64,000 bases of DNA from an uncultured Smithella sp. (GTDB lineage Bacteria > Desulfobacterota > Syntrophia > Syntrophales > Smithellaceae): positions 1,193-65,192 of the forward strand of contig CAYMWM010000003.1 in assembly GCA_964394185.1 (NCBI GenBank), written 5' to 3'. The position numbers and the translations under genes are program-made. Positions within the stretch are counted from its first letter, which is position 1. Every line of letters begins with the position of its first letter. Of this stretch, positions 27,419-44,381 are shown piece after piece. The notes beneath the pieces were generated by a model, which worked only from the letters and a program-made list of their open reading frames with translations, ran no database searches and was not told the origin of the DNA.

Positions 27419-28651
27419 ATGAATGATGTTGAAAAACAGATTCAAACCGATCCCGCCGCCAAAGTAATAGGCGAAATTATCTGGAGATTTGCCAAAACAC
27501 CTCCGGCAAGAAATCTGGTTATGTCCGTTGTTCGTGCTGCGCTGAAGGACTGGTCGGGTGACAGCAGATTTAGGGAACACATATCAGCAAACCTGGAAAA
27601 GACCATTGATAATGTCCTTTCTCAGAGAGGAAATAACGAAAACAAAATTGCCGGAGATGCAAGTTACGCGGAAAGCCTTCGTCCAATTGTACGTGATTTG
27701 GTCGAAAACATTGATTTTGGCGAAATAAAGGAAGCAGCAGACTTTCACAAAGAAAACATCGGGGCCGCTGTCATGATGATCAATGAGGAGCTCTGGCGTT
27801 ATCCGGCCAAGGTCATTTGTTTGTTGTCACTGCTTCCTGCCGCCGCGAACATGACTGTGTCGGCGGCCAAGGAAACCCTGACGCCAATGAACAGGCTGGC
27901 GCCGGATCTGCTGGCCGATGTGGTTTTTTCTCTGGTTGATGATATTGACGGCAAAAATATCGGTGAACTGATTAATGAACTAAGTGAACTTGTTCGTAAA
28001 ATTCATACCGGCAGCACGCTTTTGGGCGAACCGGGCAAACCTCAGCTGCCCAACTCTTTAAATCGTCTGACAGGTGAAGTCATCAGCACGATTGATATCA
28101 ATCTGTTGCTGAAATCCAGAAAGCTTTTGGCGGAAATCAAGGAAGTCTCGCTGAAATCCTTCATTGACCAGCTGGAACTAAGCCCCGAACTTTCCAGTGA
28201 ATTTTTCCAGGATCATTTTCTTTCTATAGTGGCGTTTATCAGAAACTGGAGCCGCAAAGCCGACGCCTTTGAGCGTCTGTTTTCCGATGAAGACATTGCT
28301 CGTGAATTTGCTAAAGGTATGGGCGAGATTGACGCCCAGGAAGTGGCTAGTACGATCAGCATGTTGTGCGGCATTGTGAATCGTGTGCGTGCTGTTACGC
28401 CGGGTGTTATACGCAATACCCTGTCGCAGACGATAAACGCGATGGACGCGGACGAAGCCGGTGAGACGGTGCGCTGGCTTACCGAGGATATCGTGGAATC
28501 TCTTAAACCGGTGGCTTCCGAGGTACTGCCCCCTCTTATCAGAGGATTGGCGGACCTTTTAAGACCGGATCCCAACAATGGTTCCAAAGAAATTCAGGAA
28601 GCGCTTGCCTATTTTAATAACGCAATTGACGGGAAGGAGGCACCTGTATGA
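27419..28651 (+). CDS. Hypothetical helical repeat protein, member 3 (about three copies of the module)
   Basis: Contains the related segment NEELWRYPAKVICLLSLLPAAANM..MNRLAPDLLADVVFSLVDDIDGKNI and recurrent x-(I/M)-D-x3-(hydrophobic) motifs. The ATG at 27419 follows GGAGG. Confidence 0.6.
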   Translation: MNDVEKQIQTDPAAKVIGEIIWRFAKTPPARNLVMSVVRAALKDWSGDSRFREHISANLEKTIDNVLSQRGNNENKIAGDASYAESLRPIVRDLVENIDFGEIKEAADFHKENIGAAVMMINEELWRYPAKVICLLSLLPAAANMTVSAAKETLTPMNRLAPDLLADVVFSLVDDIDGKNIGELINELSELVRKIHTGSTLLGEPGKPQLPNSLNRLTGEVISTIDINLLLKSRKLLAEIKEVSLKSFIDQLELSPELSSEFFQDHFLSIVAFIRNWSRKADAFERLFSDEDIAREFAKGMGEIDAQEVASTISMLCGIVNRVRAVTPGVIRNTLSQTINAMDADEAGETVRWLTEDIVESLKPVASEVLPPLIRGLADLLRPDPNNGSKEIQEALAYFNNAIDGKEAPV

Positions 28652-29796
28652 TGAAGGAATTTATTGAGGCCTCCACGGCTCTCAACAACAAGCATGTAAA
28701 CCAGTGGAAGAAAAAAGGAAAAAAAGTTGTCGGTTATACCTGTTCCTATGTGCCCGATGAAATCTTTCACGCGGCGGGTATTCTGCCATTTAGAATCCGC
28801 GGATTCGGCGCTACCGAAAATACAATCGGGGACACATACTTTGGCCCCTTCATTTGCAGTCTTCCCAAGTGCATGCTGCAACTGGCCGGTGAAGGGAAAT
28901 TTAATTTTCTGGATGGCGCGATCATCACACCCGGTTGCGATTCAATGAGACGGCTCGATGAGTGCTGGCGCAAAGCCGGTAGTGATATGCCGGGTGTTAT
29001 ACCCCCATTCTTTTTTCATTACGGCGTTCCTCATAAGTATGAGGACTATACCATCAAGTGGTTTACGGATGAAACCAAGCGTCTGATTGCGGCGGTTCAA
29101 GAACATTTTAAAGTTGAAATAACCGAGGCTGATCTCAAGGAGTCCATCAGTGTTTATAATTACAGCAGAAAACTCCTTGAAAGATTTGACGCACTGCGCA
29201 CGATGGATAATCCGCCGTTCGGCGGCGGAGAAGCGCTAGCGGTCATTCTTGCCGGCACGACCATGCCCCGGGAGAATTACAACACCCTTTTGGGGAAATT
29301 CCTTGCCGATGCTCAAAAAGCTCCCGGAATAAAGGATCGTGTACGATTGATGCTTGTCGGCAGCGCCAATGATGACATCGGATTGGTTCGGGTGATGGAA
29401 GGATCAAAGGCGCTTGTGGTTGCCGATAATCTTTGTTTCGGGTCCCGTTTTTACACCGACCGGGTTGGCGAAGACGGCGATCCGGTTTTGGAACTGTCCA
29501 AACGCTATCTGGGGCACAATGATTGTCCCCGCATGTATGGCGATTATCAGAGAAGATTGAACATACTGGAACAGAAGGTCAAAAAAGCAAAAATTGACGG
29601 TATCGTTCTGCAGAACATCCGCTTCTGCGATCTTCACGGCGCGGAAAACGGCATCTTTGAACGGGACCTGGAAGCCAAAGGAATACCCTGCATGCGTCTC
29701 GAACGGGAATATGGTCCTTTGGTGGAGACGGGAAGAATGAAAATGCGCGTCGATGCTTTTATTGAGCGAATACAGCAGAGGAGGAAAGCAGCATGA
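28648..29796 (+). CDS. HGD-D family subunit, BcrC/BzdN/HgdB-like (small subunit) of an ATP-dependent reductase/dehydratase
   Basis: GYTCSYVPDEIFHAAGILPFRI (characteristic N-terminal C-x-Y-x-P-x-E motif) and conserved Cys in ITPGCDSMRRL and IRFCDLHG. 382 aa. Confidence 0.8.
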   Translation: MMKEFIEASTALNNKHVNQWKKKGKKVVGYTCSYVPDEIFHAAGILPFRIRGFGATENTIGDTYFGPFICSLPKCMLQLAGEGKFNFLDGAIITPGCDSMRRLDECWRKAGSDMPGVIPPFFFHYGVPHKYEDYTIKWFTDETKRLIAAVQEHFKVEITEADLKESISVYNYSRKLLERFDALRTMDNPPFGGGEALAVILAGTTMPRENYNTLLGKFLADAQKAPGIKDRVRLMLVGSANDDIGLVRVMEGSKALVVADNLCFGSRFYTDRVGEDGDPVLELSKRYLGHNDCPRMYGDYQRRLNILEQKVKKAKIDGIVLQNIRFCDLHGAENGIFERDLEAKGIPCMRLEREYGPLVETGRMKMRVDAFIERIQQRRKAA

Positions 29797-31199
29797 GAAA
29801 GGAAACCAGAGAATATAAATTTGACTGGATGATGTGGACCACCTTTGCGTCAGGTGCCAGATTGAAAAGCGGAACTCAAAAAGAATATAATGCGAGCTTG
29901 AAATATATTCCTTATTTCAGCCGGATTATCGATGTCCTGCTCAGTGCGGGAGAACCGGGCACGAAGTTTATCGAGATCTGCGCCAAGTACATGGAAAATC
30001 TGACTTTTGCGAAAGAGAAGGGTAAAAAGACAGCCGTCACAACCTTCTGTTTCTCACCCGCCATTTTTTACGCCATGGATATCGTGCCGATCTGCCTGGA
30101 AGTCCTCTCCGTGATGATGACTTTTGTCTATAAAAGAGGAACGGCTGAATTTTTGGATTATTGCAACGAAGCGGGCTTTACAGAAACATCCTGTTCTGCC
30201 CAGCGCGGTTCTATCGGCGCTTATCTGGCAGGTATCGGTACGGATGTGGACATGTTCGTGATGGATACGCCGGGGGTTTGTGATACCAACGCCAATGCTT
30301 TCTCTTTTGCCTCGGCTTATTTGAACAAACCATTCTTTCAACTGGATATGCCTCCGGATCTCACAGGGCAGCGTTCCAATGAATATCATCGTGAGGACTT
30401 TAAATCACTCATCTGCTTTTTGGAAGAACAGACAGGGAAAAAACTTGATTCTGAACGCTTGAGGGCAAGTCTTCGGGAACTCGCCAGACAGGATGAGATT
30501 ATTGCCGAACTGGAGGATCTGGCAAGAATGATACCGAATCCCCGGCCTGTTTCCTACAACCTGATGTTGTACGCTTCGCGGTTTCTTTTTGCCAGTATGC
30601 CGGAGTGTACAGAGGTGCTTGAAGCTATGTTAAAAGTCGCCAGGAAAAACGCCGCGAATAACATTTCCGGATTAAGCAGTGGAAAAGAAAAACTTCGGGC
30701 TTTTTTCTGCTACATCGACCATTACGCCCAGAACATGCAGTTCTGGAAGATGCTCGACGGCAATGGCATCTGCTATCAGGGCAATATCCTCAGTCATTTT
30801 TGGTCTCATAATTCGCCTTGTGTTGCTCATTATAATAAGGAAGAAGCGTCCTATACGATTGATACAAAAGATCTGGATTCGATGATTGACAGTCTGGGTA
30901 TGATCAATTCCCGCATGCCTATGATCAAATCCATCCGCGGACCCTACGACGCCCCCAATATGTGGCTGGAAGATACCCTGGGATTGGCGAAACTCTACAG
31001 CGCAGACCTTATTGTTTACAATGGAACACCGGGGTGCCGCAACACTTGGGGAATGGTGAAACTTCTGGCTCGCGATACCGAAAAGGCCGGCTATCCGACG
31101 TATATTATGTATGCCGACGCCTTTGATGAGCGCGTGCAGTCCTGGGAAGCGACAGAAGAACGGTTCATGGAATTTCTTAAGGTAAGGAGGCTTGTATAA
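29793..31199 (+). CDS. HGD-D family subunit, BcrB/BzdO/HgdA-like (large subunit)
   Basis: 468 aa. TFCFSPAIFYAMDIVPICLE, TSCSAQRG, PGVCDTNANAF and PGCRNTWG Cys-containing segments typical of the family. ATGA overlap upstream. Confidence 0.8.
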   Translation: MRKETREYKFDWMMWTTFASGARLKSGTQKEYNASLKYIPYFSRIIDVLLSAGEPGTKFIEICAKYMENLTFAKEKGKKTAVTTFCFSPAIFYAMDIVPICLEVLSVMMTFVYKRGTAEFLDYCNEAGFTETSCSAQRGSIGAYLAGIGTDVDMFVMDTPGVCDTNANAFSFASAYLNKPFFQLDMPPDLTGQRSNEYHREDFKSLICFLEEQTGKKLDSERLRASLRELARQDEIIAELEDLARMIPNPRPVSYNLMLYASRFLFASMPECTEVLEAMLKVARKNAANNISGLSSGKEKLRAFFCYIDHYAQNMQFWKMLDGNGICYQGNILSHFWSHNSPCVAHYNKEEASYTIDTKDLDSMIDSLGMINSRMPMIKSIRGPYDAPNMWLEDTLGLAKLYSADLIVYNGTPGCRNTWGMVKLLARDTEKAGYPTYIMYADAFDERVQSWEATEERFMEFLKVRRLV

Positions 31200-31990
31200 T
31201 GTTTGCAGCGGGATGCGATGTTGGTTCATTAACGTCCAAGGCCGTCATCATGAAGGACGGCAAGATCGTTGAATCCGTCATTATAAAATCAAAGGCACGA
31301 CCCTGGGAGTCGGCCGATGAGGTGATGAATATTGTACTATCGCGAGCCAACCTGACGATGCAGGATATCAAATACTGTGTCGGTACCGGCTACGGCCGCG
31401 ACAAGATATCTTTTATTAACGAGGCTGTCTCCGAGATTGCCTGCCACGGCATGGGAGCCCGCTGGCTGGTTCCATCCGTAAGAACGGTTATTGATATAGG
31501 TGGTCAGGACTGCAAGGCCCTGCGTCTGGATGACAAAGGCAATATGGTGAAGTTCATTACCAACGACAAATGCGCTTCGGGAACCGGACGGTTTCTCGAA
31601 GTGATGGCAAAAGTCATGCATCTGAATCTTGACGAACTGGGAGAGATGTCGGCGCGTTCCAGACAGCCCGTTACCTTTGCTTCGGCCTGTACGGTGTGGG
31701 CACAGGCTGACGTTATACAGCATTTGAATGACAAGGTGCCCATCGAAGACATTGCCGCCGGGGTCAATAACGCCATGGCCAGCCGTATGTCCACTCTCGC
31801 CAACAACATCGGTCTGGAGAGAGATGTGTGCATGACAGGCGGTGTAGCCAAAAACACTGGTGTGGTAAACGCGCTGGAAAAGCACCTTGGCATAAGGATT
31901 AAAAGGATTCGCCGCGAAGACCCGCAGCTTGCCGGCGCCATCGGCGCGGCGCTCTTTGCTGCGGAAAAAGCAAATGGAGGTGCTAAATGA
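31199..31990 (+). CDS. BcrAD/BadFG/HgdC-family (ASKHA) electron-activating ATPase, copy 1
   Basis: GCDVGSLTSKAV, IDIGGQDCK, DKCASGTGRFLE and TGGVAKN motifs. 263 aa. Confidence 0.85.
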   Translation: MFAAGCDVGSLTSKAVIMKDGKIVESVIIKSKARPWESADEVMNIVLSRANLTMQDIKYCVGTGYGRDKISFINEAVSEIACHGMGARWLVPSVRTVIDIGGQDCKALRLDDKGNMVKFITNDKCASGTGRFLEVMAKVMHLNLDELGEMSARSRQPVTFASACTVWAQADVIQHLNDKVPIEDIAAGVNNAMASRMSTLANNIGLERDVCMTGGVAKNTGVVNALEKHLGIRIKRIRREDPQLAGAIGAALFAAEKANGGAK

Positions 31991-32772
31991 TTACAGCGGG
32001 TTGTGATATCGGTTCTCTTACGGCCAAGGCCATTATTATGAAAGATGGAAAAATCATCGCCTCGGAAGTCATCCTTGCATCGGCTCAGCCTGAAAAATCG
32101 GCAACCGAAGTGATGAAACGTGCTATTGAAAAAGCCGGCATCAAAATGGAAGACATCGGATACTGCACGGGTACCGGCTACGGCCGTAAACACATCCCTT
32201 TCATGAATTCCGAAGAATCCGAAATTGCCTGCCATGCCAGAGGTGCGGTCTGGCAGGTACCTTCGGCTCGCACGGTGGTGGATATCGGCGGACAGGACGC
32301 CAAGGCTATCCGCGTGGATGAAAAAGGGAATGTCGAACGTTATGTTTACAACGACAAATGTGCTTCGGGCACAGGACGGTTCCTGGAGATTATCGCTGAT
32401 GCGTTGGACATTAAGCTGGAAGATTTGGGTTCCCTATCGGAAAAGGCAAAGGAAAAACTGACCCTTTCCAATCAATGCGTGGTTTTTGCTGAAACGGAAA
32501 TTATTTCCCTGGTGAACGATGGAAAAGAAATTGCCGACATTATCAATGCCCTGCATCAGGCCGTTGCCAACCGGGCGGCGTCATTGGCCAGAGGTATTCT
32601 TGTCGAGCCCGATGCCGTTATGACGGGCGGTGTAGCGAAAAATTCCGGCATGTTCGCGGCACTGGAAAGGGCTCTGGGTGTGAAACTGCACAAAGTGGAG
32701 AATCCCCAGATAAACGGGGCTCTGGGAGCGGCTCTTTTTGCAGCCGATAAAGTAAACGGTTCAGGGAAGTAG
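31987..32772 (+). CDS. BcrAD/BadFG/HgdC-family (ASKHA) electron-activating ATPase, copy 2
   Basis: GCDIGSLTAKAI, DIGGQDAK, DKCASGTGRFLE and TGGVAKN. 261 aa. ATGA overlap with copy 1. Confidence 0.85.
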   Translation: MITAGCDIGSLTAKAIIMKDGKIIASEVILASAQPEKSATEVMKRAIEKAGIKMEDIGYCTGTGYGRKHIPFMNSEESEIACHARGAVWQVPSARTVVDIGGQDAKAIRVDEKGNVERYVYNDKCASGTGRFLEIIADALDIKLEDLGSLSEKAKEKLTLSNQCVVFAETEIISLVNDGKEIADIINALHQAVANRAASLARGILVEPDAVMTGGVAKNSGMFAALERALGVKLHKVENPQINGALGAALFAADKVNGSGK

Positions 32773-32778
32773 GGGAAA

Positions 32779-33513
32779 ATGGAGCTTTTTGGAGAAACCC
32801 TCTCAGATATCAGAAAGTATATGGCGGGGAAAAACAGTGAGGCACGGGTTATAGAAGCGCAAAAAAATGCCTGGCCCCCGGGCGGGGGCAGAAATGTGGT
32901 TTTATCGGACGATATGGCGCTAGAATTGGGAAATCCCCAGATGAATTCCGTCTCCTGCCTGATATGGACACAAAATGCCGGTTTTGTTCATGACGGGAGA
33001 ATCAGTCTTATCGGTCCGGATATAAAAGAAAGCAGCGGGAAGAGTCTGCCCTTCGGGAAGATTGTTCTTGCCGAGGTTAGCGGATTTGATGAAGAGACGA
33101 CCTACGATAAATATAAGGAAATGGAAACCGTGCGATACGCTCTCGATCTTAAAGGATACATGATCAGGGCGGTATCGCAGTATCAGAGGGAATGGAGCCG
33201 AATCAGCAGGGAAGCCGTTCAAAAAGGTTTTTCCTTTGAAATCCTGGCCGGTTCTTTGAGAAATGAATATTTAAAGAAGGATTATATTCATGCCGTTGAA
33301 TTTATTTTTGTGACATCTAGCGCCGGTGATGTCGGTGAACTTCAGGAAATCACGAAAAACGTGGGCCGTAAGGTCAGCGCCCTCAACAAGATGTTAAGTG
33401 AAATGGATACCGATTGCGATGAGTGTGAGTACAACGATGTTTGTGATGAAGTCGATGAACTCAAAGGCATGAAAAAAAAGCGTGATGAAAAAAGGATAGG
33501 AACAAATGGATAA
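32779..33513 (+). CDS. Truncated acetyl-CoA synthase (AcsB/CdhC)-like protein lacking the Ni-binding A-cluster domain
   Basis: LIGPDIKESSGKSLPFGKIVL and EWSRISREAVQKGFSFE resemble the central GPD(I/L)..LPFG and W.RVSKD.A.K segments of ACS as I remember them. The protein ends at DCDECEYNDVCDE. Needs HMM confirmation. Confidence 0.55.
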   Translation: MELFGETLSDIRKYMAGKNSEARVIEAQKNAWPPGGGRNVVLSDDMALELGNPQMNSVSCLIWTQNAGFVHDGRISLIGPDIKESSGKSLPFGKIVLAEVSGFDEETTYDKYKEMETVRYALDLKGYMIRAVSQYQREWSRISREAVQKGFSFEILAGSLRNEYLKKDYIHAVEFIFVTSSAGDVGELQEITKNVGRKVSALNKMLSEMDTDCDECEYNDVCDEVDELKGMKKKRDEKRIGTNG

Positions 33514-34276
33514 AAAAACAAAGACGATAGCATTATGCGGAAAGGGCGGCGTGGGCAAAACATCTGTGTCGGCGCTGATGATCAAGGACCTTGCCCAAAG
33601 AAAAGACATCAAGGTGCTGGCCATAGATGCCGATCCGGCTGTGGGCCTCTGTACGGCGTTGGGCATACAAATCAGAAAGACCGTGGATGATATAAGAAAC
33701 GATTTAATCAAATCGATTAAAAAAGGAGAGGGGCAGGACAAAGCGGCCACGCTGAACATGCTCGATTACGAACTCTTTGATGCCCTGACGGAATTTAATA
33801 ATGTCGGATTGCTGGCGATCGGCAGGCCGGAATCCGAGGGTTGCTTCTGCAAGGTTAACTCTCTTTTAAAGGATATCATCCAGGATCTGGCGAAAAATTT
33901 CGATGTAGTTTTAATTGACGGGGAAGCCGGCGTCGAGCAGATCAACAGAAGAGTGATGAAAACAGTGGATCACCTGATTATGATATCCGATACATCAGCC
34001 AAAGGTGTGAATGTTGCCAACACCATCAAACATCTGGCCCAGGATAATAAGGCCGTGAATTATAAAAGCATCGGGATGATTTTGAACCGCGTTAGAGATG
34101 AACGTGAAGTTAAGGACATCGGAAAGAATACCTCCATTAATATTTTAGGCTGGCTGTCTGAAGACAACCTGATCAGGGAATTCGATTTTCACGGCAGGTC
34201 ATTTCTGGATTTTCCTGACGAAGCCGGTGCCAGCAAAACCGTAAAACAAATTATACAGGATTTGCAGATTAATTAG
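33506..34276 (+). CDS. CooC/AcsF-type MinD-family metal-insertion ATPase
   Basis: Deviant Walker A CGKGGVGKTS, IDADP, and a CxC motif in GRPESEGCFCKVNSLL, as in CooC nickel chaperones. The start overlaps the upstream stop by 8 nt. Confidence 0.75.
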   Translation: MDKKTKTIALCGKGGVGKTSVSALMIKDLAQRKDIKVLAIDADPAVGLCTALGIQIRKTVDDIRNDLIKSIKKGEGQDKAATLNMLDYELFDALTEFNNVGLLAIGRPESEGCFCKVNSLLKDIIQDLAKNFDVVLIDGEAGVEQINRRVMKTVDHLIMISDTSAKGVNVANTIKHLAQDNKAVNYKSIGMILNRVRDEREVKDIGKNTSINILGWLSEDNLIREFDFHGRSFLDFPDEAGASKTVKQIIQDLQIN

Positions 34277-34294
34277 TCAAAGAGAGAATGCGTC

Positions 34295-35128
34295 ATGAAT
34301 ATTGCGGTGGTATATTTTTCGCAAACAGGCCAGACCCTGAAAGTTGCTGAAGCGATGGCGGAAAATCTGCGTGAAAAAAAGCATACGGTAAAGGTTTTGC
34401 CAATGCGGAAAGTAAAACCTGCCGATATTGCAATATGTGACTTGCTGGGCGTGGGATCTCCCTGCTTCGAGAGTCAGGCTCCGACACCGGTTCTTGACTG
34501 GCTTGGTAAGTGGCCTGCTCTTAACGATAAACCTGTTTTTGTCTTTGCAACTTCGGGCGGAGCGCCAGGCCGTGTTCTTTATGATCTTAACAGGGTGTTG
34601 CGCGTCAAGGGCGCCAGAGTCATCGGCGGGTTTATGAGCCGTGGTACCGTGCATCATCCTGCACCCTGCCTGATCGGTCGCCTGCCGAACCGCCCCAATT
34701 CCGAAGATTTGGCACAAGCCCGTGCCTTTGCTTCGGCAGTGGATAAATATATGCAGTCTTGCAGTACGGGCGTCATGTCGGAGAGCCGTCCGGACGCGCT
34801 CAAACCCATGTGGGGTTATTTTCACCTGATAGGTCTTGTCACGAAACCGTTCCTGCTGCGCATGGTACTTCCCAAACCAAAGGTGGATAAGAACCTATGC
34901 AATCAATGCGGGCTTTGCGCGAAAGAATGTCCGGTGAACAGCCTGACCCTTAAGCCGTATCCGGTACTGAATAGCCACTGCATCCGCTGTTATCACTGCC
35001 AGAATATCTGTCCGCAAAATGCCCTGAGTGAATCGTGGTGGTATGGAAATCTGGTTATATGGTTCCTTTATAACACAATCTTTTCCCGTCTTTTCGGGGA
35101 TCTGAAGCCGGGAGAAAGTATTTACTGA
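34295..35128 (+). CDS. Flavodoxin-like domain fused to 2x[4Fe-4S] ferredoxin domain, with hydrophobic C-terminal helix
   Basis: MNIAVVYFSQTGQT (flavodoxin FMN-loop motif), CNQCGLCAKECP and CIRCYHCQNICP, and the C-terminal WWYGNLVIWFLYNTIFSRLF. Confidence 0.8.
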   Translation: MNIAVVYFSQTGQTLKVAEAMAENLREKKHTVKVLPMRKVKPADIAICDLLGVGSPCFESQAPTPVLDWLGKWPALNDKPVFVFATSGGAPGRVLYDLNRVLRVKGARVIGGFMSRGTVHHPAPCLIGRLPNRPNSEDLAQARAFASAVDKYMQSCSTGVMSESRPDALKPMWGYFHLIGLVTKPFLLRMVLPKPKVDKNLCNQCGLCAKECPVNSLTLKPYPVLNSHCIRCYHCQNICPQNALSESWWYGNLVIWFLYNTIFSRLFGDLKPGESIY

Positions 35129-35162
35129 TAGGACAGCAGTAGAACAAAGAAGGGGGATCAAT

Positions 35163-36299
35163 ATGGCAACATCCGGAAAAACCATGAAGGTATTTGAAGA
35201 ACTTTTGGAAAGTCCGCAGAATCGTCTGGTTGAACAGGCTCTACAGGATGGACGCATACCCATTGCCTATTCATGTTCTTATGTTCCCGAAGCCCTGCTT
35301 ATGGCGGACAAACTTTTTCCCGTACGTCTGCACACGCCCGGTGTCGCAGGCACCGAAATTGCGGACAACTATCTTTCCAGCCTCACTTGTTCTTATACCC
35401 GCAGCCTGCTGGAATTTACTATGGATGATCGTTTCGATCAAATTAAAGGCTGGGTATTCGTACCCGCCTGCATTCATATGCAGAGGCTCTATGACAATCT
35501 GGAATATCTGAAACATCCGGTTTTCAATCATGTGCTGGATGTGCCGCGGAAAGTGAATAAGGACACACTGGAATGGATGGCCGAAGAACTGAAAATTCTG
35601 GCGGATAAACTTGCCGCGCATTTCGGCGTGGACATGAGCGATGATTCAATCAAAAGAGCTATTCGTCAATGGAACGACTTTGCCGCTGCCGTCCAGTCTA
35701 TCGGTGAGTTGCGTAAAAAACCAAATCCGCCCGTAACCGGCACGGAATTTCATCAAATGGTAATGGCCGCGCTGGCCTCGCCCAAGGACCTTATTTTACC
35801 GGTTATCTCCAATCTCAAAAAAGAACTGGATGAGCGGGAAGGCATCAAGAAATACCGGGCGCGTCTGATGATTGTCGGCGGTCATCTGCACGATCCGGAT
35901 TTCATCAAAATCATCGAATCACAGGGTGGCTTGGTTGTGGCGGACCGTTTCTGTACTGGGACGATTCCCGGCTTTAAAACCATAGGACTTAACGGAGGCA
36001 ACCCGTACAAGACTCTGGCTGAATATGCCTTCGACAAAACACTTTGCCCGCGGATGATGGAGGAATTCGACCGTCGGCTGAACATGATTATCGATACCGT
36101 AAAAGAATACAAGGTGGATGGTGTGGTGTTGGAGATCATCAAATTCTGCGATCTCTGGGGAGTGGATTCCATGCCGCTGGTAACCGCTTTGCGCGAGACG
36201 GGCATCCCGGTGCTCAAATTGGAGCGGGAATACCGGCTCGGCGGGGAAGGTCAACTGCGCACACGCGTGCAGGCTTTTATCGAAAGCATGGGTAAATAA
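35163..36299 (+). CDS. HGD-D family small (BcrC/HgdB-like) subunit, second set
   Basis: AYSCSYVPEALLMADKLFPVRL N-terminal motif, FVPACIHMQRL and IKFCDLWG. 378 aa. Confidence 0.8.
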   Translation: MATSGKTMKVFEELLESPQNRLVEQALQDGRIPIAYSCSYVPEALLMADKLFPVRLHTPGVAGTEIADNYLSSLTCSYTRSLLEFTMDDRFDQIKGWVFVPACIHMQRLYDNLEYLKHPVFNHVLDVPRKVNKDTLEWMAEELKILADKLAAHFGVDMSDDSIKRAIRQWNDFAAAVQSIGELRKKPNPPVTGTEFHQMVMAALASPKDLILPVISNLKKELDEREGIKKYRARLMIVGGHLHDPDFIKIIESQGGLVVADRFCTGTIPGFKTIGLNGGNPYKTLAEYAFDKTLCPRMMEEFDRRLNMIIDTVKEYKVDGVVLEIIKFCDLWGVDSMPLVTALRETGIPVLKLEREYRLGGEGQLRTRVQAFIESMGK

Positions 36300-36316
36300 T
36301 TTGATAAGGAGAATGC

Positions 36317-37831
36317 ATGAAACTCAATACGGTTATTGATAATACCAAAGCCAAAATGATGGATTTGCCATTCATTACAAAGAGATTTCTTCGAAACTCC
36401 TGGGCCGGATACCTTTTTCGCGGACCGAATCCCCGCGATGCGGCTGTTTTTATAAAATACTGGATTATGAACTGGGCGGCTATTTTCTACTGGATTGGCG
36501 AATCTATAATTAAACTGGGCCCTGTCGGATTCACCCGCGCGCTGATTAAAAATCCCTGGATACTGATTTTGCTCAGGGTCAATGGCGCCTCCAACCGTAT
36601 GGTGCTCGGTCGAACCGGCATGTATCACGATTCCATCTGTCTGACCATGCATACCATTTGTCTGGGCGTAATCGATCAACTGCGCCAGATGCTGTTTGAT
36701 CCCGAGCGCCTGGTTGTCTTCGAGGATCTCGTTCCCTATGATATCGGACGGGCTATGGGATTGAACTGTTACCTGCTCGAACTGATGGGTATTGTTTTGC
36801 CCATTCTCTATTCCGATGCTTCCTTGCCGTACATCGATGAAGCGGAAAACTCGGGTATGAATCCCGATGCCTGCAGTTTACCCAAGGCCACCGTGGGCAT
36901 GGTCATCAAGGGTCATATGCCCAAAGGGGTGGCCATGGTAAGTTCCAACATGCCCTGCGACGCGGGGGCTGCCTCCTATGCCTTCATCGAGCGCGCCTTT
37001 AATGTTCCCACCTACCGGGTGGACGCGCCTTATTTTTTCTACAACGAACGGGCGGAAAAGCTGTTTGGCAAGGATATTGACGGCATGATTGCCTGGCTGG
37101 AGGAACATACCCCCGGACGCATGGACTGGGATGAAATGCGCAAAATCTGTGAAGGCCGCAACCGCATGCTGGAAATGGAGACGGAGCTCTGGGAAATGAT
37201 TAGAGTCAAACCCGCGCCGCTGGCCTGCGAGGCGGTGTGGTTGAGCCACATCTGGCATTTCAATGTCACGGCTGGTTATCACCGGTCGGTCAAATTTTAT
37301 GAAAAGCTCCTAAAAATGGCGCGCAGAAATTATGAAAATAAAATTTCCGCCACAAAAAATGAGAGATATCGGGCGGTGCTCTGGAACCCGCCGTTTCTCC
37401 ATTTCAGCGATATTTTCAACTGGGTAGAACGCACCTACGGTGTAGTTCTTATCAATGACAGCATGACTTACAATCATCATGGTCCCATCGATACGACCTC
37501 GAAGGAAACCATGATCAGGGATTGGGGCAGGACCGTCATGCAGGGGCCCATGGTTCGCCATACGCGCGGACCGGCTGAGAACTATCTGGACGATATTTTC
37601 CGCATGTATGAGCAGTTCAGTCTCGATATGGTCTGGGTAGCCAACCATGTGGGGTGTAAAGGCGGTCAGGCCATGAACGGCATCCTGCGGGAGCGGTGCC
37701 GCGCCAAAGGCATTCCCCTGCTCATTCTGGATTACGACCTCTCCGATCGAAGGATCGTATCGCATGACAACATGATGAAGCAGGTGGATTTCTTTATGGA
37801 AAACGTCATGAAGGCAAATCGCCTGAATTAA
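36317..37831 (+). CDS. HGD-D family large subunit with ~110-aa hydrophobic N-terminal extension (copy A)
   Basis: 504 aa. DACSLPKATVG, SNMPCDAGAASY and VANHVGCKGGQA conserved Cys segments. About three-quarters of aligned positions look identical to 40071-41591 by eye. Confidence 0.8.
   Translation: MKLNTVIDNTKAKMMDLPFITKRFLRNSWAGYLFRGPNPRDAAVFIKYWIMNWAAIFYWIGESIIKLGPVGFTRALIKNPWILILLRVNGASNRMVLGRTGMYHDSICLTMHTICLGVIDQLRQMLFDPERLVVFEDLVPYDIGRAMGLNCYLLELMGIVLPILYSDASLPYIDEAENSGMNPDACSLPKATVGMVIKGHMPKGVAMVSSNMPCDAGAASYAFIERAFNVPTYRVDAPYFFYNERAEKLFGKDIDGMIAWLEEHTPGRMDWDEMRKICEGRNRMLEMETELWEMIRVKPAPLACEAVWLSHIWHFNVTAGYHRSVKFYEKLLKMARRNYENKISATKNERYRAVLWNPPFLHFSDIFNWVERTYGVVLINDSMTYNHHGPIDTTSKETMIRDWGRTVMQGPMVRHTRGPAENYLDDIFRMYEQFSLDMVWVANHVGCKGGQAMNGILRERCRAKGIPLLILDYDLSDRRIVSHDNMMKQVDFFMENVMKANRLN
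37538..37818 (+). repeat. Near-identical 281-nt tract shared with 41295-41575 (3' ends of the duplicated HGD-D genes)
   Basis: Gap-free collinear alignment at offset 3757. It includes a 41-nt run of perfect identity (cggtgccgcgccaaaggcattcccctgctcattctggatta), so synonymous sites are conserved. Confidence 0.85.
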
Positions 37832-37847
37832 AGATAGAGGAGTTACA

Positions 37848-39158
37848 ATGGGTCACATTGCTGCCAAGGACATATTTCGCCGGGTTGGAGATAAACTGGA
37901 TAGCCTCCATGTCCGATGCTCGTGGAATGATGATCTCAAGGCATTGTTGAAGGCGCTCTTTACCGAAGAAGAGGCCGAAATTTTTGTCAAGATGCCTTAT
38001 GTGTTTTCGGACTTGAATCGCATAAGCAAGATTACCAGATTGCCAAGAGAGCATACTCGGCAATTACTTAATAGCTTATGCAGCAAGGGGCTCGTCGTAG
38101 ATATCTGGATTAACGACCGCTATCATTATATGCCCTCGCCCATGATCATCGGCGTGTTTGAATTCACCATGATGCGAACAGGCAAAGACGCCAAACCCGC
38201 AGAATGGGGACCGCTGTTTTATCGAGTGCTCGAGAACAAAGAGAGTTTCTACCATCCCAATGCGGGAGCAGATCAGGTTATGTCACCGGCGAGAGTCTAT
38301 CTTCATGATGAATCTGTCCTGCCGGATGAATACACGCGCATATTGGACTACGAATCGGCCACACACATCATAGATACATCCTCGAAATGCGCTATAGGTA
38401 TCTGTTCCTGCCGTCATGAAAAATTGCATGCGGGCGTAAAAAAATGCGACCTGCCTCTAGAAACCTGCGCCAGTTTCGGTTGGGCTGCCGATTACCTCGT
38501 CCGCCATAAAATGGCGCGCGAGGTTACGAAAGAACAGATGAAGGATAATATGGCCCTATCCCGTGAAAAAGGTCTGGTCTTTTGCGGCGACAATGTCCGG
38601 CGCAATGTAACCTTTATCTGTCAATGCTGTTCCTGCTGCTGCAACCTGTTGCTGGGAGTTAACCGGCACGGCTACCCCAATACGCTTGTGACATCAAGCT
38701 TCATCGCCACGGTGGATGAAGCTGCATGCACGGGCTGCACCAAATGTTACAAGGCCTGTCCGGTAGAGGCCATTGAAATAATTGAAAAGCAAGCTTCCGC
38801 CAAACCCCGCAAACTGGCTGTCGTCAAAGAAGATTTGTGTCTCGGATGCGGCGTATGCACAATGCAATGTGCCCAAAAGGCTATTAAAATGGAAAAAAGA
38901 CCGGAGCGCTACATTCATCCGGAAACGACTTTTGAGCGGGTGTTGCTGCAATGCCTGGAGCGGGGCACGCTGCAAAACCAGATATTCGACAATCCCGAGA
39001 GCCTTTCTCAGGAATTCATGCGTGGTTTGATTAAAGGGTTCATGAAACTTGTACCCGCCAAACAGATTGAGATGAATAAAACATTACGATCCAGTTTTCT
39101 GGCTTTGGGCGGAATGGTCATCAGCCTGAAGAACAAAAGCTGGATCAAGGAACTTTAA
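37848..39158 (+). CDS. Cys-rich Fe-S protein: N-terminal winged-helix-like region, CxxxCxC and CxCCxCCC motifs, plus 2x[4Fe-4S] ferredoxin motifs (copy A)
   Basis: CAIGICSCRHEKLHAG..C..C, FICQCCSCCCNLL, CTGCTKCYKACP and CLGCGVCTMQC. 436 aa. Confidence 0.75.
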   Translation: MGHIAAKDIFRRVGDKLDSLHVRCSWNDDLKALLKALFTEEEAEIFVKMPYVFSDLNRISKITRLPREHTRQLLNSLCSKGLVVDIWINDRYHYMPSPMIIGVFEFTMMRTGKDAKPAEWGPLFYRVLENKESFYHPNAGADQVMSPARVYLHDESVLPDEYTRILDYESATHIIDTSSKCAIGICSCRHEKLHAGVKKCDLPLETCASFGWAADYLVRHKMAREVTKEQMKDNMALSREKGLVFCGDNVRRNVTFICQCCSCCCNLLLGVNRHGYPNTLVTSSFIATVDEAACTGCTKCYKACPVEAIEIIEKQASAKPRKLAVVKEDLCLGCGVCTMQCAQKAIKMEKRPERYIHPETTFERVLLQCLERGTLQNQIFDNPESLSQEFMRGLIKGFMKLVPAKQIEMNKTLRSSFLALGGMVISLKNKSWIKEL

Positions 39159-39181
39159 ATAAATACATGAAGGAGATTGAC

Positions 39182-39973
39182 ATGACGAAGAAATATTACG
39201 GCGGCTGCGATGTCGGCTCCACAACCGGCAAAGCGGTCATTCTTGATGAAAGCGGCAACATGGTTTCCAGCGCCATCGTTCCCAGTGAAATTGATCCGGA
39301 ATTGACCTCTGTATTGGCTCTGGAGAAGGCCTGCGCAATGGTGGATGGCTTAAAAAGCTACAAAGAGCTGGCTTATCTTGTGGGTACGGGCTACGGGCGG
39401 AATGAGGTCTCTTTTGCCAACGAAAATATTTCTGAGATCAGCTGCCACGCCATGGGGACTTTTTCCTGCGCGCCTTTAGTCAAAACTATTGTGGATATCG
39501 GCGGGCAGGATGTAAAAACGATTTCCTTAAACGGCGATGGTTCGGTGCTGGAATTTGCCATGAACGATAAATGTGCCGCCGGTACAGGAAGATTCTTCGA
39601 GGCCATGAGCCGTATCTTCCGGATGGATCTCAATGAATTTTCATCGCTGTCTTTGAAGGCCAACAAGATTATTCCGGTTACCGCCCAGTGCAGTGTCTTC
39701 GCGGAGAGTGAGGTCATCAGTCTGCTGGCGCGCCGCAATCCTCCCGAAGAAGTAGCAGCAGGAATTCAGGCGGCGGTTTCCAAGCGCTGCTTCACATTGC
39801 TCAAACGAATCGGTATGCAGCCTCTGGTGACCGTGACGGGTGGATGCGCCAAAAGCAAGGGACTGATTAAATCATTGACCAAAGTCATTGGCATGGAAGT
39901 GACGCCTCTGCCGGTAGATCCCCAGATAATTGGCGCACTGGGAGCTGCTGTATTTGCCCGACGCCGGCAGTGA
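39182..39973 (+). CDS. BcrAD/BadFG/HgdC-family (ASKHA) activator ATPase, copy 3
   Basis: GCDVGSTTGKAV, DIGGQDVK, DKCAAGTGRFFE and TGGCAKS. The ATG at 39182 follows AAGGAG; the track start is 39167. Confidence 0.85.
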   Translation: MTKKYYGGCDVGSTTGKAVILDESGNMVSSAIVPSEIDPELTSVLALEKACAMVDGLKSYKELAYLVGTGYGRNEVSFANENISEISCHAMGTFSCAPLVKTIVDIGGQDVKTISLNGDGSVLEFAMNDKCAAGTGRFFEAMSRIFRMDLNEFSSLSLKANKIIPVTAQCSVFAESEVISLLARRNPPEEVAAGIQAAVSKRCFTLLKRIGMQPLVTVTGGCAKSKGLIKSLTKVIGMEVTPLPVDPQIIGALGAAVFARRRQ

Positions 39974-40070
39974 ATATAGTAGTTGATAATTTTGGTGCTT
40001 TAAAAATTAAATTGGAAAAGAGGCCAGTCTTATTCGGAAGCAGGAACAACGTATTTATGGTGAGTCTTAC

Positions 40071-41591
40071 GTGAAGTTTAATACTGCCATTGACGACACC
40101 ATGACCAATATCTTGCGCCTGCCGGATTACGTGAAGGGTTTCCTGAAGCGATCGCTCATCGGATATCTTTTCAGTGCGTCGCATCCGCGGGATGTGCTTG
40201 TTTTTACAAAATATTGGATCCTAAACTGGGTGGCAATTTTGCATTGGATAGGGCAGTCCATCTTTAAACTCGGTCCCATCGTCCTTGGCCGCGCTTTGAT
40301 TAAGCATCCGTGGATATTGATTTTACTTCGTGTCAATGGCCTCACCAATCGTGTGGCGCGCGGTAAAACCGGTGTGTATCATGATGCGCTTTGTCTGATT
40401 GTTCACACCATTTGTTTGGGCGTTATTGAAGAATTGCGCAACATGCTGTTTGATGCGGAGCATTTGGTCATTTTCGAAGATCTTGTCCCTTATGATATCG
40501 GCAGGGGCATGGGTTTAAATTGTTACATGCCTGAACTGTGGGGTATTATCCTGCCCATTCTAACATCCGAGGCCACCTTGAAATATATTGATGAAGCTGA
40601 AAACTCGGGTATGAATCCCGACGCGTGCAGTCTGCCTAAGGCCACGGTGGGAATGGTTCTCAAAGGTCATGTTCCCAAAGGCATTGCCATGGTCTGTTCC
40701 AATATGCCCTGTGACGCTGGCGCTGCTTCCTACTCGGTCATTCAACGCGCGTTTGGCAATATACCGGCCTACCGGTTGGACGCGCCTTATAATTTTTACA
40801 ATGAGCGCGCGGAAGAGTTTTTTGCCAGAGATGTCATGGGCATGATCTCCTGGTTGGAGAAACACACTCCCGGACGGATGGATTGGGGTCGGATGCGAGA
40901 GATATTCCAGGGACGCAACCGCATGCTGGAGCTTGAGACGGAACTTTGGGAAATGAACCGGATCAGACCGGCTCCTCTGGCGGGTGCCGCGGTCTGGTTG
41001 AGTCACTTGTGGCATTTCAATGTCTCGGCCGGGAGTCCGGCATCGGTGCGATACTATGAAAAGCTGGTTAAACTGGCACGCAAAAATTATGAAAATAAAA
41101 TTCCTGCCACAAAGAATGAACGATACCGGGCGGTGCTCTGGAACCCGCCTTTTATGCATTTCAGTGATATTTTCAACTGGGCTGAACAGAAGTATGGCGT
41201 TTTAATAATCAACGACAGCATGACCTACAATCACCATGAACCCATTGACACAACGTCACCGGAAACCATGATAAAAGGCTGGGCCAGGACTATCATGCAG
41301 GGTCCTATGGTGCGTCACACACGCGGACCGGCTGAAAATTATCTCGATGATATTTTCCGAATGGTCGAGCAGTTCAGTCTCGATATGGTCTGGGTTGCCA
41401 ACCATGTGGGGTGCAAGGGCGGTCAGGCTATGAACGGTATCCTGCGGGAACGGTGCCGCGCCAAAGGCATTCCCCTGCTCATTCTGGATTATGACCTCTC
41501 CGATCAAAGGATCGTATCGCACGACAACATGATGCGGCAGGTGGATTTTTTTATGGAAAACATCATGAAGGCAAAGTGTATCGATAAGTAA
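40071..41591 (+). CDS. HGD-D family large subunit with hydrophobic N-terminal extension (copy B, no adjacent small subunit)
   Basis: GTG start. 506 aa. Collinear with 36317-37831, and the last ~90 aa are nearly identical. Confidence 0.8.
   Translation: MKFNTAIDDTMTNILRLPDYVKGFLKRSLIGYLFSASHPRDVLVFTKYWILNWVAILHWIGQSIFKLGPIVLGRALIKHPWILILLRVNGLTNRVARGKTGVYHDALCLIVHTICLGVIEELRNMLFDAEHLVIFEDLVPYDIGRGMGLNCYMPELWGIILPILTSEATLKYIDEAENSGMNPDACSLPKATVGMVLKGHVPKGIAMVCSNMPCDAGAASYSVIQRAFGNIPAYRLDAPYNFYNERAEEFFARDVMGMISWLEKHTPGRMDWGRMREIFQGRNRMLELETELWEMNRIRPAPLAGAAVWLSHLWHFNVSAGSPASVRYYEKLVKLARKNYENKIPATKNERYRAVLWNPPFMHFSDIFNWAEQKYGVLIINDSMTYNHHEPIDTTSPETMIKGWARTIMQGPMVRHTRGPAENYLDDIFRMVEQFSLDMVWVANHVGCKGGQAMNGILRERCRAKGIPLLILDYDLSDQRIVSHDNMMRQVDFFMENIMKAKCIDK
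41295..41575 (+). repeat. Partner copy of the 37538-37818 tract
   Basis: Same alignment as above. Confidence 0.85.
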
Positions 41592-41622
41592 GGTTGTTTT
41601 TATTTCATGAGGCATAGGAGAC

Positions 41623-42939
41623 ATGCGTATGCATATGGCCACTAAAAAGACAGCTTATCATAAGCTGGGGGAAAAGATAGACAACCTGCATGTAAAATCA
41701 CCCTGGAATGAAACATGGCATCATATCCTTAAGGAGTTATACACCATTGAGGAGGCTGATGTGGTGGTCGGGATGCCCTATACTCTTTCAACACTGGAAA
41801 GAATATCGCAGATAACCGGAATTGAGGGCACCAGACTTCAGAACATTCTGGAGAGCTTGTGCAGAAAAGGGCTTGTTATGGATGTATGGAATGTGGATCA
41901 CGGCCGGTACTATTATCTGCCCTGGCCTATAGCCATAGGGATTTTCGAATTTACCATGATGAGGACCGATAGAGATCTCAACAAGAAGAAAATAGCGGAA
42001 CTCTTTCACGAATACTTCGGTTCCGTGCACGCTGCTAATTTTTCAAACGATGAAAAAATTTCAGCGCTACGCGTCATTCCCGTTGAAGAATCTATATCCA
42101 ACGGCAATCATACGGTGTTTTTCAATTACGAAAAAGCCACATCGATCATCGAAAGTTCGGATAAGTATGCCATCGGCCTTTGCTCCTGCCGGAACGAAAA
42201 ACTGCATGCTGGAGCCGGGACTTGCGATGCGCCTATGGATTCCTGCAGCCTCTTGGGGATTGGTGCGGATTACGGGATCAGAAATAAACTCGCCAGGCAG
42301 GTCACGAAATCTGAAATGCTGGATAACTTAGCCCGGTCAAAAGAATATGGTCTGGTATTCTGTGCCGTCAACACTCAAAAGAATCCGGTGGCCATCTGCC
42401 ACTGCTGCAAGTGCTGCTGCAACTTTTTAGGCGGATTGACCAAATACGGATATCAGAATTGCGTCGTTACATCCAATTTCATTTGCCGGATCGATGTCGA
42501 CAAGTGCAAAGGATGCGGTCGATGCGTTAACGCATGTCCGGTCAATGCTTTGAGTATGGTGTCGGCAAATGATCCTCGGAACATGAAAAAGAAAATATGC
42601 CTGCTCAATACGAAAATATGCGTGGGCTGCGGTGTTTGTGTAAACAAATGTGTCGGCAAGGCCATTGAGATGATACCGCGGGAGAACAGGGTTATTCATC
42701 CGGAGTCTCTTTTCGAAGTGATTATGATGGCGGCACTTGAACGCGGCACCCTGCAGAACCAACTGTTTGATAATCCATTGAGCATAACGCAGCATTACAT
42801 GAGAACCTTTGTCGGGGCGTTTCTGAAGCTTGAATCGATCAAACAGGTTTTTATGAGCAATCTTTTCCGATCCATATTCTTATCATCGGCAAGGGGAATT
42901 GCCAGAATGCAGGGCAAGCGTTGGATGCTGGATCTATAA
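41623..42939 (+). CDS. Cys-rich Fe-S protein (copy B), paralogue of 37848-39158
   Basis: YAIGLCSCRNEKLHAG, ICHCCKCCCNFL, CKGCGRCVNACP and CVGCGVCVNKC. The start could be 41623, 41629 or 41635 (MRMHM). Confidence 0.75.
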   Translation: MRMHMATKKTAYHKLGEKIDNLHVKSPWNETWHHILKELYTIEEADVVVGMPYTLSTLERISQITGIEGTRLQNILESLCRKGLVMDVWNVDHGRYYYLPWPIAIGIFEFTMMRTDRDLNKKKIAELFHEYFGSVHAANFSNDEKISALRVIPVEESISNGNHTVFFNYEKATSIIESSDKYAIGLCSCRNEKLHAGAGTCDAPMDSCSLLGIGADYGIRNKLARQVTKSEMLDNLARSKEYGLVFCAVNTQKNPVAICHCCKCCCNFLGGLTKYGYQNCVVTSNFICRIDVDKCKGCGRCVNACPVNALSMVSANDPRNMKKKICLLNTKICVGCGVCVNKCVGKAIEMIPRENRVIHPESLFEVIMMAALERGTLQNQLFDNPLSITQHYMRTFVGAFLKLESIKQVFMSNLFRSIFLSSARGIARMQGKRWMLDL

Positions 42940-43631: not shown

Positions 43632-44381
43632 ATGGCAAAAAAACCGATAGATAATCTCTCCCGGCTGTATACGTATAAAGAGGGTATGGAATGGAATCCT
43701 GTGGAAAAGGTCATCATGGAGCGGCGCAGTATCCGGAATTTCAAAAAACAGCCGGTTCCCGACAATATGATCAGAAGAATTCTTGAGGCCGGGAGATTCG
43801 CACCTACGGCGGGTAACGCCCAGCCCTGGAAATTCGTTGTCATCAAGGATCAGGCGCTGATTGCGGAAATGGAAAAAGAAACAATCAAATTCAGTAAATT
43901 GCTCATGTGGTTTGTTGATTATAATCGCAATGCCTTCCGGAGCGTATTTCTTGCTCCTTATACAAAGTTTATGACGCGGTTGATGCCCAATAAGCTTCAT
44001 CCCATCCCTTTCAACCTGCTCCAGCAGATAGCGGCGGAAAAAACACCGGTTTACCACAATGCTCCGGTGATGATCCTGCTGATGATAGATAAAAGGGGCG
44101 TCGGCAATCCTGTTTTGGATACGGGAATCTGCGGACAGAACATGGTTCTGGCTGCCCACAGTTTGGGCTTGGGAACCTGCTGGGTCGGCATGATAACCGT
44201 ATTGATGATGAATCCCCTTTGGCGGAAAAAATTGGGAGTAGCCTCTCCTTATGAACTTACCGATTGTCTTGTTTTAGGCTGGCCCAAAGGCGATTATGAC
44301 GGCGAGGTGGAAAGAGAGGTCCAATTGGTTGAGTGGATTGATGAAAACGGAGTAAAAAGAATAGAGAGTCAGGGAGTTTGA
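43632..44381 (+). CDS. Nitroreductase-family flavoprotein
   Basis: RRSIRNFKKQPVP....ILEAGRFAPTAGNAQPWKFVVI is the classic nitroreductase N-terminal signature. Confidence 0.8.
   Translation: MAKKPIDNLSRLYTYKEGMEWNPVEKVIMERRSIRNFKKQPVPDNMIRRILEAGRFAPTAGNAQPWKFVVIKDQALIAEMEKETIKFSKLLMWFVDYNRNAFRSVFLAPYTKFMTRLMPNKLHPIPFNLLQQIAAEKTPVYHNAPVMILLMIDKRGVGNPVLDTGICGQNMVLAAHSLGLGTCWVGMITVLMMNPLWRKKLGVASPYELTDCLVLGWPKGDYDGEVEREVQLVEWIDENGVKRIESQGV

Follow-up and report, generated by a model that had tools for sequence, protein, structure and literature searches.

The window analysed here, a 64,000-nucleotide stretch of contig CAYMWM010000003.1 from an uncultured Smithella sp., carries two paralogous genes, T1 and T2, that encode cysteine-rich iron-sulphur (Fe-S) proteins of an unnamed family. 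Proteins of this kind, multi-cluster Fe-S redox proteins with a ferredoxin module, are familiar; the ten-cysteine core at their center has no known relative, and this core and the overall architecture are undescribed in the libraries and papers searched. The two genes are located as follows.

37848..39158, + strand: T1, a 436-residue member of the unnamed cysteine-rich Fe-S family, T1-type lineage (open reading frame; family searches; AlphaFold2 model)
41623..42939, + strand: T2, a 438-residue paralogue, T2-type lineage, the commoner occupant of the operon slot elsewhere (45% identity to T1)

Both open reading frames are intact and are preceded by good Shine-Dalgarno sequences (GAGGAG and AGGAG). 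The products align over their full length at the identity given above (E 3e-134), and a Kyte-Doolittle scan detected no transmembrane-grade segment in either. In the quick tree on which the phylogeny rests, T1-type and T2-type sequences form separate, well-supported lineages of one major clade. T2 groups with the relative from locus L038 (100* support), and the relative from locus L020 falls outside both lineages. Structurally, T1 comprises the following parts.

37929..38135, + strand: winged-helix-like domain, residues ~28-96 (AlphaFold2 secondary structure; Foldseek match 3cuo_D; net charge across 88 homologues)
38280..38696, + strand: alpha/beta core, residues ~145-283, with ten conserved cysteines and R149, E169, R189, H190, H194, D248 and N249 (conservation)
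38700..38897, + strand: bacterial-type 2x[4Fe-4S] ferredoxin domain, residues ~285-350, with C294/297/300/304 and C331/334/337/341 (Pfam Fer4, Fer4_6, Fer4_7, Fer4_21)
38919..39155, + strand: C-terminal helical bundle with the LERGTLQNQIFDNP motif, residues ~358-436, in long-form members only (AlphaFold2 helices 361-435)

The full-length AlphaFold2 model of T1, built from 88 homologues, reaches a predicted local distance difference test score (pLDDT) of 91.5 and a predicted template modelling score (pTM) of 0.90. It is predicted to be one rigid body, in which linker helices join the winged-helix-like domain to the core and the ten core cysteines are placed in or just after strands. The N-terminal domain consists of helices 40-48, 56-63 and 67-79 followed by a hairpin of strands 83-88 and 91-96, and by its fold it belongs to the winged helices of the TrmB / MarR / ArsR type. 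This topology, a weak Foldseek match to 3cuo_D (probability 1.0, TMt 0.58, E 0.043, root-mean-square deviation 2.2 over 67 columns) and a weak Pfam TrmB match of T2 (E 0.002, 18.4 bits, under the 25.6-bit cut-off) support a first-pass annotation of the locus, which had noticed an N-terminus resembling a winged helix-turn-helix. Its DNA-binding look is doubtful because residues 38-98 have a mean net charge of -1.3 over the 88 homologues (range -7 to +4) and are thus acidic on average. The putative recognition helix is unconserved in its first half, and in short-form paralogues the winged helix is swapped for other, some of them hydrophobic, N-termini. Most likely, the domain is used for packing or protein contacts, not DNA binding.

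The two CxxCxxCxxxC(P) motifs reported from the letters alone are indeed present and are recognized by several Fer4-type models above their cut-offs, placing this part in the Pfam Fer4 clan. T1 scores 40.7 bits with Fer4_6 (cut-off 25), 39.3 with Fer4_21 (35) and 36.7 with Fer4 (21.1), and T2 scores 43.9 bits with Fer4. In a sequence search of T1 against the PDB, matches were confined to the ferredoxin modules of HdrA, FwdF, MvhB, RnfB and PsaC. The C-terminal helical bundle is missing from the family forms of ~360 residues. The LERGTLQNQ(I/L)FDNP tail, described earlier as conserved, occurs in both paralogues and is limited to long-form members.

Conservation of the core was judged on 42 very diverse and 88 closer homologues. 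A count of conserved cysteines in the family alignment, which the first-pass annotation had proposed as a check, gives ten in the core and eight in the ferredoxin domain that are invariant or nearly so, the eight ferredoxin cysteines being invariant among the 88 homologues. The first conserved cluster is C186-x-C188-R-x11-C200-x6-C207 (T1 numbering). Four of the five motif claims made at first reading hold, and every string quoted there is present; the exception is the proposed 'C-x3-C-x-C' start, as T1 reads C181-x4-C186-x-C188 and T2 has a tyrosine at the first position. C181, the first cysteine of the claimed 'CxxxCxC', is kept in just 3 of 86 family members. The second cluster is C258-x-C260-C261-x-C263-C264-C265, or CxCCxCCC, which bears out the dense cysteine runs noticed earlier (FICQCCSCCCNLL in T1 and ICHCCKCCCNFL in T2). 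In the long-form clade the polar residues E105, R110, R149, E169, R189, H190, H194, R219, D248 and N249 are fixed, and so is an N-terminal M-G-H.

The ten cysteines do not vary independently. C200, C261, C263 and C264 have been jointly lost in two independent lineages, with C186, C188, C207, C258, C260 and C265 retained. One lineage comprises a copy on contig C155 of the same genome and its orthologues at L169 and L170; the other is a copy on contig C5 (C5_50920), whose nearest paralogue retains all ten. Among 19 sequences with single-site variants, 16 are changed at position 263, where Asp, Lys or Ile stands in for Cys, or at 264, where Ser or His does. Because four cysteines are lost together while the other six are kept, and because the variants cluster at 263/264, the alignment suggests that the core cysteines are split into separable centers, one of four (C200, C261, C263, C264) and one of six (C186, C188, C207, C258, C260, C265). 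A further variant, P0230 (519 residues), has a His/Asp-rich N-terminal tail, HGGHGHHHGHKHDHDHDHDHDH, and a 10-residue insertion that divides the second motif into CxCC and CCC.

Searches for relatives of the core were carried out at the level of families, sequences and folds. Pfam and NCBIfam matches of T1, T2 and members from cultured strains are limited to the ferredoxin part (residues ~283-355); no NCBIfam model covers the members from cultured strains, and all NCBIfam scores for the ferredoxin region of T1 and T2 lie far under the family cut-offs. A Pfam scan of 70 isolated cores at E <= 5 yielded no consistent family. When PDB sequences were searched with a profile of the core, the best match was the SIS domain of MurR (E 0.26), without backing from Foldseek. 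A Foldseek search of the full-length model against the PDB returned ferredoxin domains and a weak winged helix and left the core unmatched. The core was also modelled alone from 70 sequences, with a pLDDT above 90 in its well-folded part; the best Foldseek match of this model has an E of 2.6, a probability of 0.08 and a TM score of 0.21 (48 matches at E <= 10). A literature search on the motif strings found nothing relevant, and broader ones brought up the thnF precedent alone (see below). As stated at first reading, the CxCCxCCC module thus finds no place among known cluster-binding folds, in Pfam, NCBIfam, PDB sequence and profile searches, and Foldseek.

Several named candidates were considered and rejected. 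An RnfB / RsxB identity fails, as TIGR01944 gives 45.7 bits against a cut-off of 68.7 and aligns only through profile positions 104-169, which is the ferredoxin part. For an HdrB-type CCG domain there is no CCG match in T1 or T2 (E <= 0.01) or in the 70 cores (E <= 5), and no Hdr chain is found among the 48 Foldseek matches. The catalytic subunit of ferredoxin:thioredoxin reductase (FTR; FeThRed_B) differs in spacing from the CxC-x11-C-x6-C ... x50 ... CxCCxCCC of the family and was matched neither by Pfam nor by Foldseek. Family members align to the methanogenesis marker 16 metalloprotein model (TIGR03287) only at profile positions ~295-350, not in its N-terminal ~290. A non-family gene of the same bacterial genome (C44:2851-3795) matches the N-terminal 289 positions of that model with an E of 2.9e-39, below the cut-off. 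Domain fusions proved uninformative as functional hints: P0225 is an apparent mis-assembly, and P0230 adds just its His-rich tail. P0125 (3,932 residues) is an unrelated tandem-repeat protein picked up through summed weak matches.

The family is large. A search with just the N-terminal 282 residues brings up 1,446 cluster representatives (50% identity) at E <= 0.001, mostly of 350-440 residues. The full protein has ~3,000 matches, named only 'ferredoxin', '4Fe-4S binding protein', 'RnfB', 'PreA' or 'PorD'. When one genome per species was scanned, at least 530 species genomes proved to be carriers, distributed over Thermodesulfobacteriota, Myxococcota, Nitrospirota, Planctomycetota, Spirochaetota, Zixibacteria, Acidobacteriota, Chloroflexota, Bacillota, Bacteroidota, Actinomycetota, Atribacterota, Mycoplasmatota and a lineage of the candidate phyla radiation. 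The lifestyles represented include gut Firmicutes, sulfate reducers and hydrocarbon-degrading syntrophs, and among the carriers in culture are Desulfatibacillum alkenivorans DSM 16219, Nitratidesulfovibrio sp. HK-II and Lachnoclostridium sp. An14. About a dozen members are encoded in the draft genome to which the window belongs (3.6 Mb, 85% complete). About ten of these lie outside the window, on contigs C2, C5, C22, C24, C71, C81, C102, C123 and C155; the copy on C24 is split solely by an assembly gap (a run of N).

In the window, T1 and T2 lie among genes for the subunits and the activator of an HGD-D-type enzyme.

34295..35128, + strand: flavodoxin-2x[4Fe-4S] fusion protein (Pfam Flavodoxin_5 and Fer4)
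35163..36299, + strand: small HGD-D subunit of the associated enzyme, 378 residues (Pfam HGD-D E 2.4e-84; syntenic elsewhere)
36317..37831, + strand: large HGD-D subunit copy 1, 504 residues, with an N-terminal extension, directly upstream of T1 (Pfam HGD-D E 2.5e-52)
39167..39973, + strand: BcrAD/BadFG-type activator ATPase, 8 bp downstream of T1 (Pfam PF01869 E 1e-50; TIGR00241 220.7 bits, above cut-off)
40071..41591, + strand: large HGD-D subunit copy 2, 506 residues, directly upstream of T2 (Pfam HGD-D E 1.6e-53)

Each Fe-S gene immediately follows a large HGD-D gene of ~505 codons, as had been noted at first reading, with gaps of 16 bp before T1 and 31 bp before T2; T1 is in turn followed by the activase gene. 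The large subunits were also said to carry a hydrophobic N-terminal extension. The extension exists, but a 19-residue Kyte-Doolittle scan of the segments encoded at 36317-36650 and 40071-40400 gave no transmembrane-grade segment. In a distant clade of large subunits without an Fe-S partner, the first ~40 residues of this extension are missing. The two large-subunit copies (36317-37831 and 40071-41591) are 76% identical to each other, and the downstream Fe-S genes, which belong to different old lineages (T1-type and T2-type), only 45%; T1 and T2 are no recent tandem duplicate despite their similar partners. This discordance suggests, as read from the sequences, either that the HGD-D gene alone was recently duplicated or underwent gene conversion, or that the locus was assembled from two cassettes. 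Farther downstream lie a nitroreductase-family gene at 43632-44381, 700 bp after T2, and a GMC oxidoreductase gene at 47360-48724, after a third HGD-D pair.

These genes belong to a super-cluster that occupies positions 28648-42939 of the window and is conserved in L014, L015, L020 (from Desulfosudis oleivorans), L038 and L098-L133. Its order is an unknown gene of ~400 codons, two HGD-D genes, two activase genes, a CdhC-like gene, a CooC-like gene and an optional flavodoxin-ferredoxin gene, followed by small HGD-D, large HGD-D, the optional Cys-rich Fe-S gene and an activase gene. It pairs a benzoyl-CoA-reductase-like set of four genes with a dehydratase-like set of three. The conserved slot (small HGD-D, large HGD-D, Fe-S protein, activase) is filled in L014, L015, L020, L038 and ~20 metagenome contigs; L014 and L015 hold relatives at 80% and 69% identity inside the matching super-cluster. 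The position of the Fe-S gene varies, on either side of the activase gene or next to the CdhC/CooC pair: it lies ahead of activase and large subunit in L015 and between the activase and the CdhC/CooC pair in L020. T2-type genes fill the slot in ~17 contigs and T1-type genes in a few, both types using it in different genomes. In L098:9536-10600 and L099:9536-10600, a T2-type copy of 354 residues in the usual slot ends after the second ferredoxin motif, without the helical bundle. The flavodoxin-ferredoxin fusion is present in eight metagenome loci (L098, L099, L105, L106, L109, L112, L116 and L150); where a cassette includes it, it is a putative electron donor, either alternative or additional.

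A reverse test used the large HGD-D subunit to retrieve 71 metagenome loci. Within the close clade (>=57% identity, ~503-511 residues), a family member adjoins the large subunit in ~20 of 27 informative loci. In the distant clade (<=52% identity, ~468 residues), 14 loci lead directly from large subunit to activase, and 2 of ~16 carry a short-form member. The association with this lineage of HGD-D enzymes is real, repeated and old. The tie to the enzyme proposed at first reading is backed, as a functional link, by synteny in ~25 independent contigs, in which the gene shifts position inside the cassette. Co-occurrence with HGD-D and activase genes is inconsistent in both the forward and the reverse direction, which speaks against an obligatory subunit of HGD-D or benzoyl-CoA-reductase-type enzymes; since many sister cassettes function without the gene, the protein is better described as an accessory partner.

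The wider family shows a different picture. HGD-D linkage is seen in 2 of 80 species loci (L020 and L038) and in 2 of ~12 copies in the genome of the window, both of them T1 and T2 themselves; HGD-D genes occur on three contigs only of that genome. As 78 of the 80 species loci and 10 of the 12 own-genome copies lack this linkage, the architecture is not peculiar to HGD-D enzymes, and the family as a whole is no HGD-D subunit. No neighbour family recurs in more than six of the 68 analysable species loci, and homologues at 52-54% identity lie in unrelated neighbourhoods. The other copies in the same genome neighbour a TetR regulator with a nitroreductase, CoA-transferases, ADP-forming acyl-CoA synthetases, a radical S-adenosylmethionine enzyme, a GMC oxidoreductase with an aldehyde:ferredoxin oxidoreductase, DUF169 and small membrane proteins. 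The oxidoreductase case (C155:848-5334) is a degenerate short-form member directly upstream of the GMC-type flavoprotein and the aldehyde:ferredoxin oxidoreductase. A nitroreductase gene follows a family member and a TetR gene at C2:20849-23297, lies immediately upstream of a family member at L055:1426-3274, and recurs at L037; these cases are too few for a pattern.

Taken together, these data can be read in more than one way. The reading that we favour, tentatively and at somewhat less than an even chance, is that T1 and T2 are a dedicated multi-center redox relay feeding an ATP-dependent HGD-D-type enzyme, with both metal content and partner putative. T1 and T2 would be soluble multi-center Fe-S redox proteins of a large uncharacterised family, whose ten core cysteines probably form two further metal centers beyond the 2x[4Fe-4S] ferredoxin, the six-cysteine site being ringed by conserved Arg, His, Glu and Asn. 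Low-potential electrons would enter T1 or T2 and pass along about four centers to the cluster of the activator or directly to the enzyme. In the operon, the protein would act as a redox partner, dedicated yet dispensable, for the enzyme formed by the two HGD-D subunits, small and large, with the activator ATPase. The data show the architecture, its conservation, a core without known relatives and a conserved place in the operon; we infer that the ten cysteines bind Fe-S clusters, that they split into two sites, which way electrons flow and which partner is served, the binding on the basis of the conserved core and the adjacent ferredoxin domain. ATP-dependent operons of the benzoyl-CoA-reductase type carry their own ferredoxin gene directly after the reductase genes, as in thnF, and ferredoxin is the natural electron donor of class I reductases (PMC12016498). 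This precedent, together with the conserved slot between enzyme and activase genes, supports a redox partner.

A number of points weigh against such a relay. Many sister cassettes lack the Fe-S gene, and since most members have neither HGD-D nor any recurrent neighbour, the basic function of the family is independent of the HGD-D enzyme. For HGD-D enzymes of the dehydratase type a catalytic electron is enough, and it could come from any ferredoxin or from the flavodoxin-ferredoxin fusion encoded nearby. The invariant polar residues (E105, R110, R149, E169, R189, H190, H194, D248 and N249), seldom so numerous in simple carriers, point to a substrate-binding or catalytic site. The ten cysteines could also hold zinc or another metal instead of Fe-S.

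The main rival takes up these polar residues and regards the family as a free-standing ferredoxin-dependent reductase, in which electrons would flow through the ferredoxin domain and the four-cysteine center to a substrate reduced at the six-cysteine site. This site could be a [4Fe-4S] cluster beside a redox-active cysteine pair, or a non-cubane cluster, FTR- or HdrB-like; a disulfide, a persulfide or some other small molecule might be reduced there, in the operon as an auxiliary reaction instead of feeding the enzyme. It draws its appeal from the many invariant polar residues, nine or more around the cysteine core, and from the orphan status of most members, as a gene without conserved neighbour is what a self-contained enzyme would be expected to have. 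The 6 + 4 split leaves two cysteines beyond the need of one cubane cluster, and ten is also the number of cysteines in the two five-cysteine non-cubane sites of HdrB (Wagner et al. 2017, cited in PMC13101534). Yet neither Pfam nor the 48 Foldseek matches at E <= 10 bring up any sequence or fold likeness to CCG/HdrB or FTR, the gene context yields no candidate substrate, and the tight conserved setting between enzyme-subunit and activase genes suits a partner better. We regard the reductase as unlikely, at roughly one chance in four.

Two further readings are less likely still. T1 and T2 might be a maturation, scaffold or repair factor that holds or delivers Fe-S fragments for the unusual clusters in HGD-D or double-cubane-type enzymes, together with the CooC-type ATPase and the acetyl-CoA-synthase-fragment protein. 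The super-cluster does encode a CooC/MinD-type ATPase and a CdhC-like fragment, the gene adjoins that pair in L020, the dense CxCCxCCC run may resemble cluster-carrier chemistry, and dispensability in sister cassettes fits an accessory factor. However, HGD-D, CooC and CdhC genes are all absent from the vicinity of most family members, the cassettes retain CdhC and CooC with or without the Fe-S gene, and a permanently attached 2x[4Fe-4S] ferredoxin domain indicates electron transfer, which makes such a factor improbable. Least probable, and by our estimate very unlikely, is a redox-sensing one-component transcription regulator, whose winged helix would bind DNA while its Fe-S centers report the redox or oxygen state. 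The winged-helix N-terminus with its weak TrmB match would fit, and so would a dozen or so paralogues beside different catabolic genes, in neighbourhoods that vary across genomes as is typical of regulators. The acidic charge of the domain and the unconserved first half of its recognition helix speak against DNA binding, however, as do the predicted rigid body (pTM 0.90) and the several paralogues that keep core and ferredoxin domain but have hydrophobic N-termini in place of the winged helix. The gene also lies mid-operon, 8-16 bp from enzyme genes, and its eighteen conserved cysteines are far more than are used by the known Fe-S sensors, such as those of the Rrf2, Wbl and FNR families.

Like HdrB and its CCG domains, the core has ten cysteines in non-ferredoxin motifs in which some cysteines adjoin as Cys-Cys pairs; it acts beside a 2x[4Fe-4S] module (HdrC in Hdr) and may likewise form a catalytic Fe-S site. 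The motifs differ: CX31-39CCX35-36CXXC in CCG against CxC..C..C and CxCCxCCC in T1 and T2, and Foldseek returned no HdrB chain of the 5odc type. FTR is small and mainly helical, and its catalytic subunit has the motif CPCX16CPCX8CHC. The CxC-R-H and C-H-C-like strings of T1 and T2 recall this CPC...CPC...CHC pattern, a likeness of strings only, and by analogy the six-cysteine set could be a [4Fe-4S] cluster with a redox-active cysteine pair fed by ferredoxin; the core of T1 and T2 is predicted by AlphaFold2 to be alpha/beta, unlike the mainly helical FTR. Polyferredoxins and the ferredoxin domains of HdrA, FwdF, MvhB and RnfB are the best matches, with E 2.5e-10 by sequence and E 2.5e-3 by fold. 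Their likeness is limited to T1 residues ~283-355 and underlies the names 'RnfB', 'PreA' and 'PorD' in databases. The benzene 'Magic' cluster (PMC13101534) is a different system.

It is conceivable, though on balance doubtful, that the ten-cysteine core is a previously unrecognised metal-cluster-binding fold with a new active site, for example one in which a [4Fe-4S] cluster is coupled to a cysteine pair, or in which CxCCxCCC holds a non-cubane or fused cluster. If so, this widespread family would be a new class of ferredoxin-dependent redox enzyme, recruited as a built-in partner by some ATP-dependent radical enzymes. The invariant ten-cysteine module occurs in hundreds of species and more than a dozen bacterial phyla, and databases label the ferredoxin part only. 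If the core holds Fe-S centers, a new cluster-binding scaffold would be added to the small known set, and cultured hosts exist for experiments on the family.

The nearest counterparts in gene setting are the dedicated ferredoxins of ATP-dependent aryl-CoA reductase operons, of which Thauera Fdx and Azoarcus BzdM are small plain ferredoxins of ~80-100 residues. Together with ThnF, named merely 'Ferredoxin' in PMC12016498, they share with T1 and T2 the 2x[4Fe-4S] CxxCxxCxxxCP motifs, a gene position beside HGD-D-type subunits and a BcrAD-type ATPase, and a presumed role in low-potential electron supply (PMC12016498). The recurrent position of the family between an HGD-D-type enzyme and its ATPase provides a testable system for low-potential electron delivery to ATP-driven radical enzymes in strict anaerobes. 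In contrast to such ferredoxins, T1 and T2 carry an extra N-terminal part of 280 residues, comprising the winged helix and the ten-cysteine core, as well as a helical tail of 80 residues, and their family is mostly located away from operons of the aryl-CoA reductase type.

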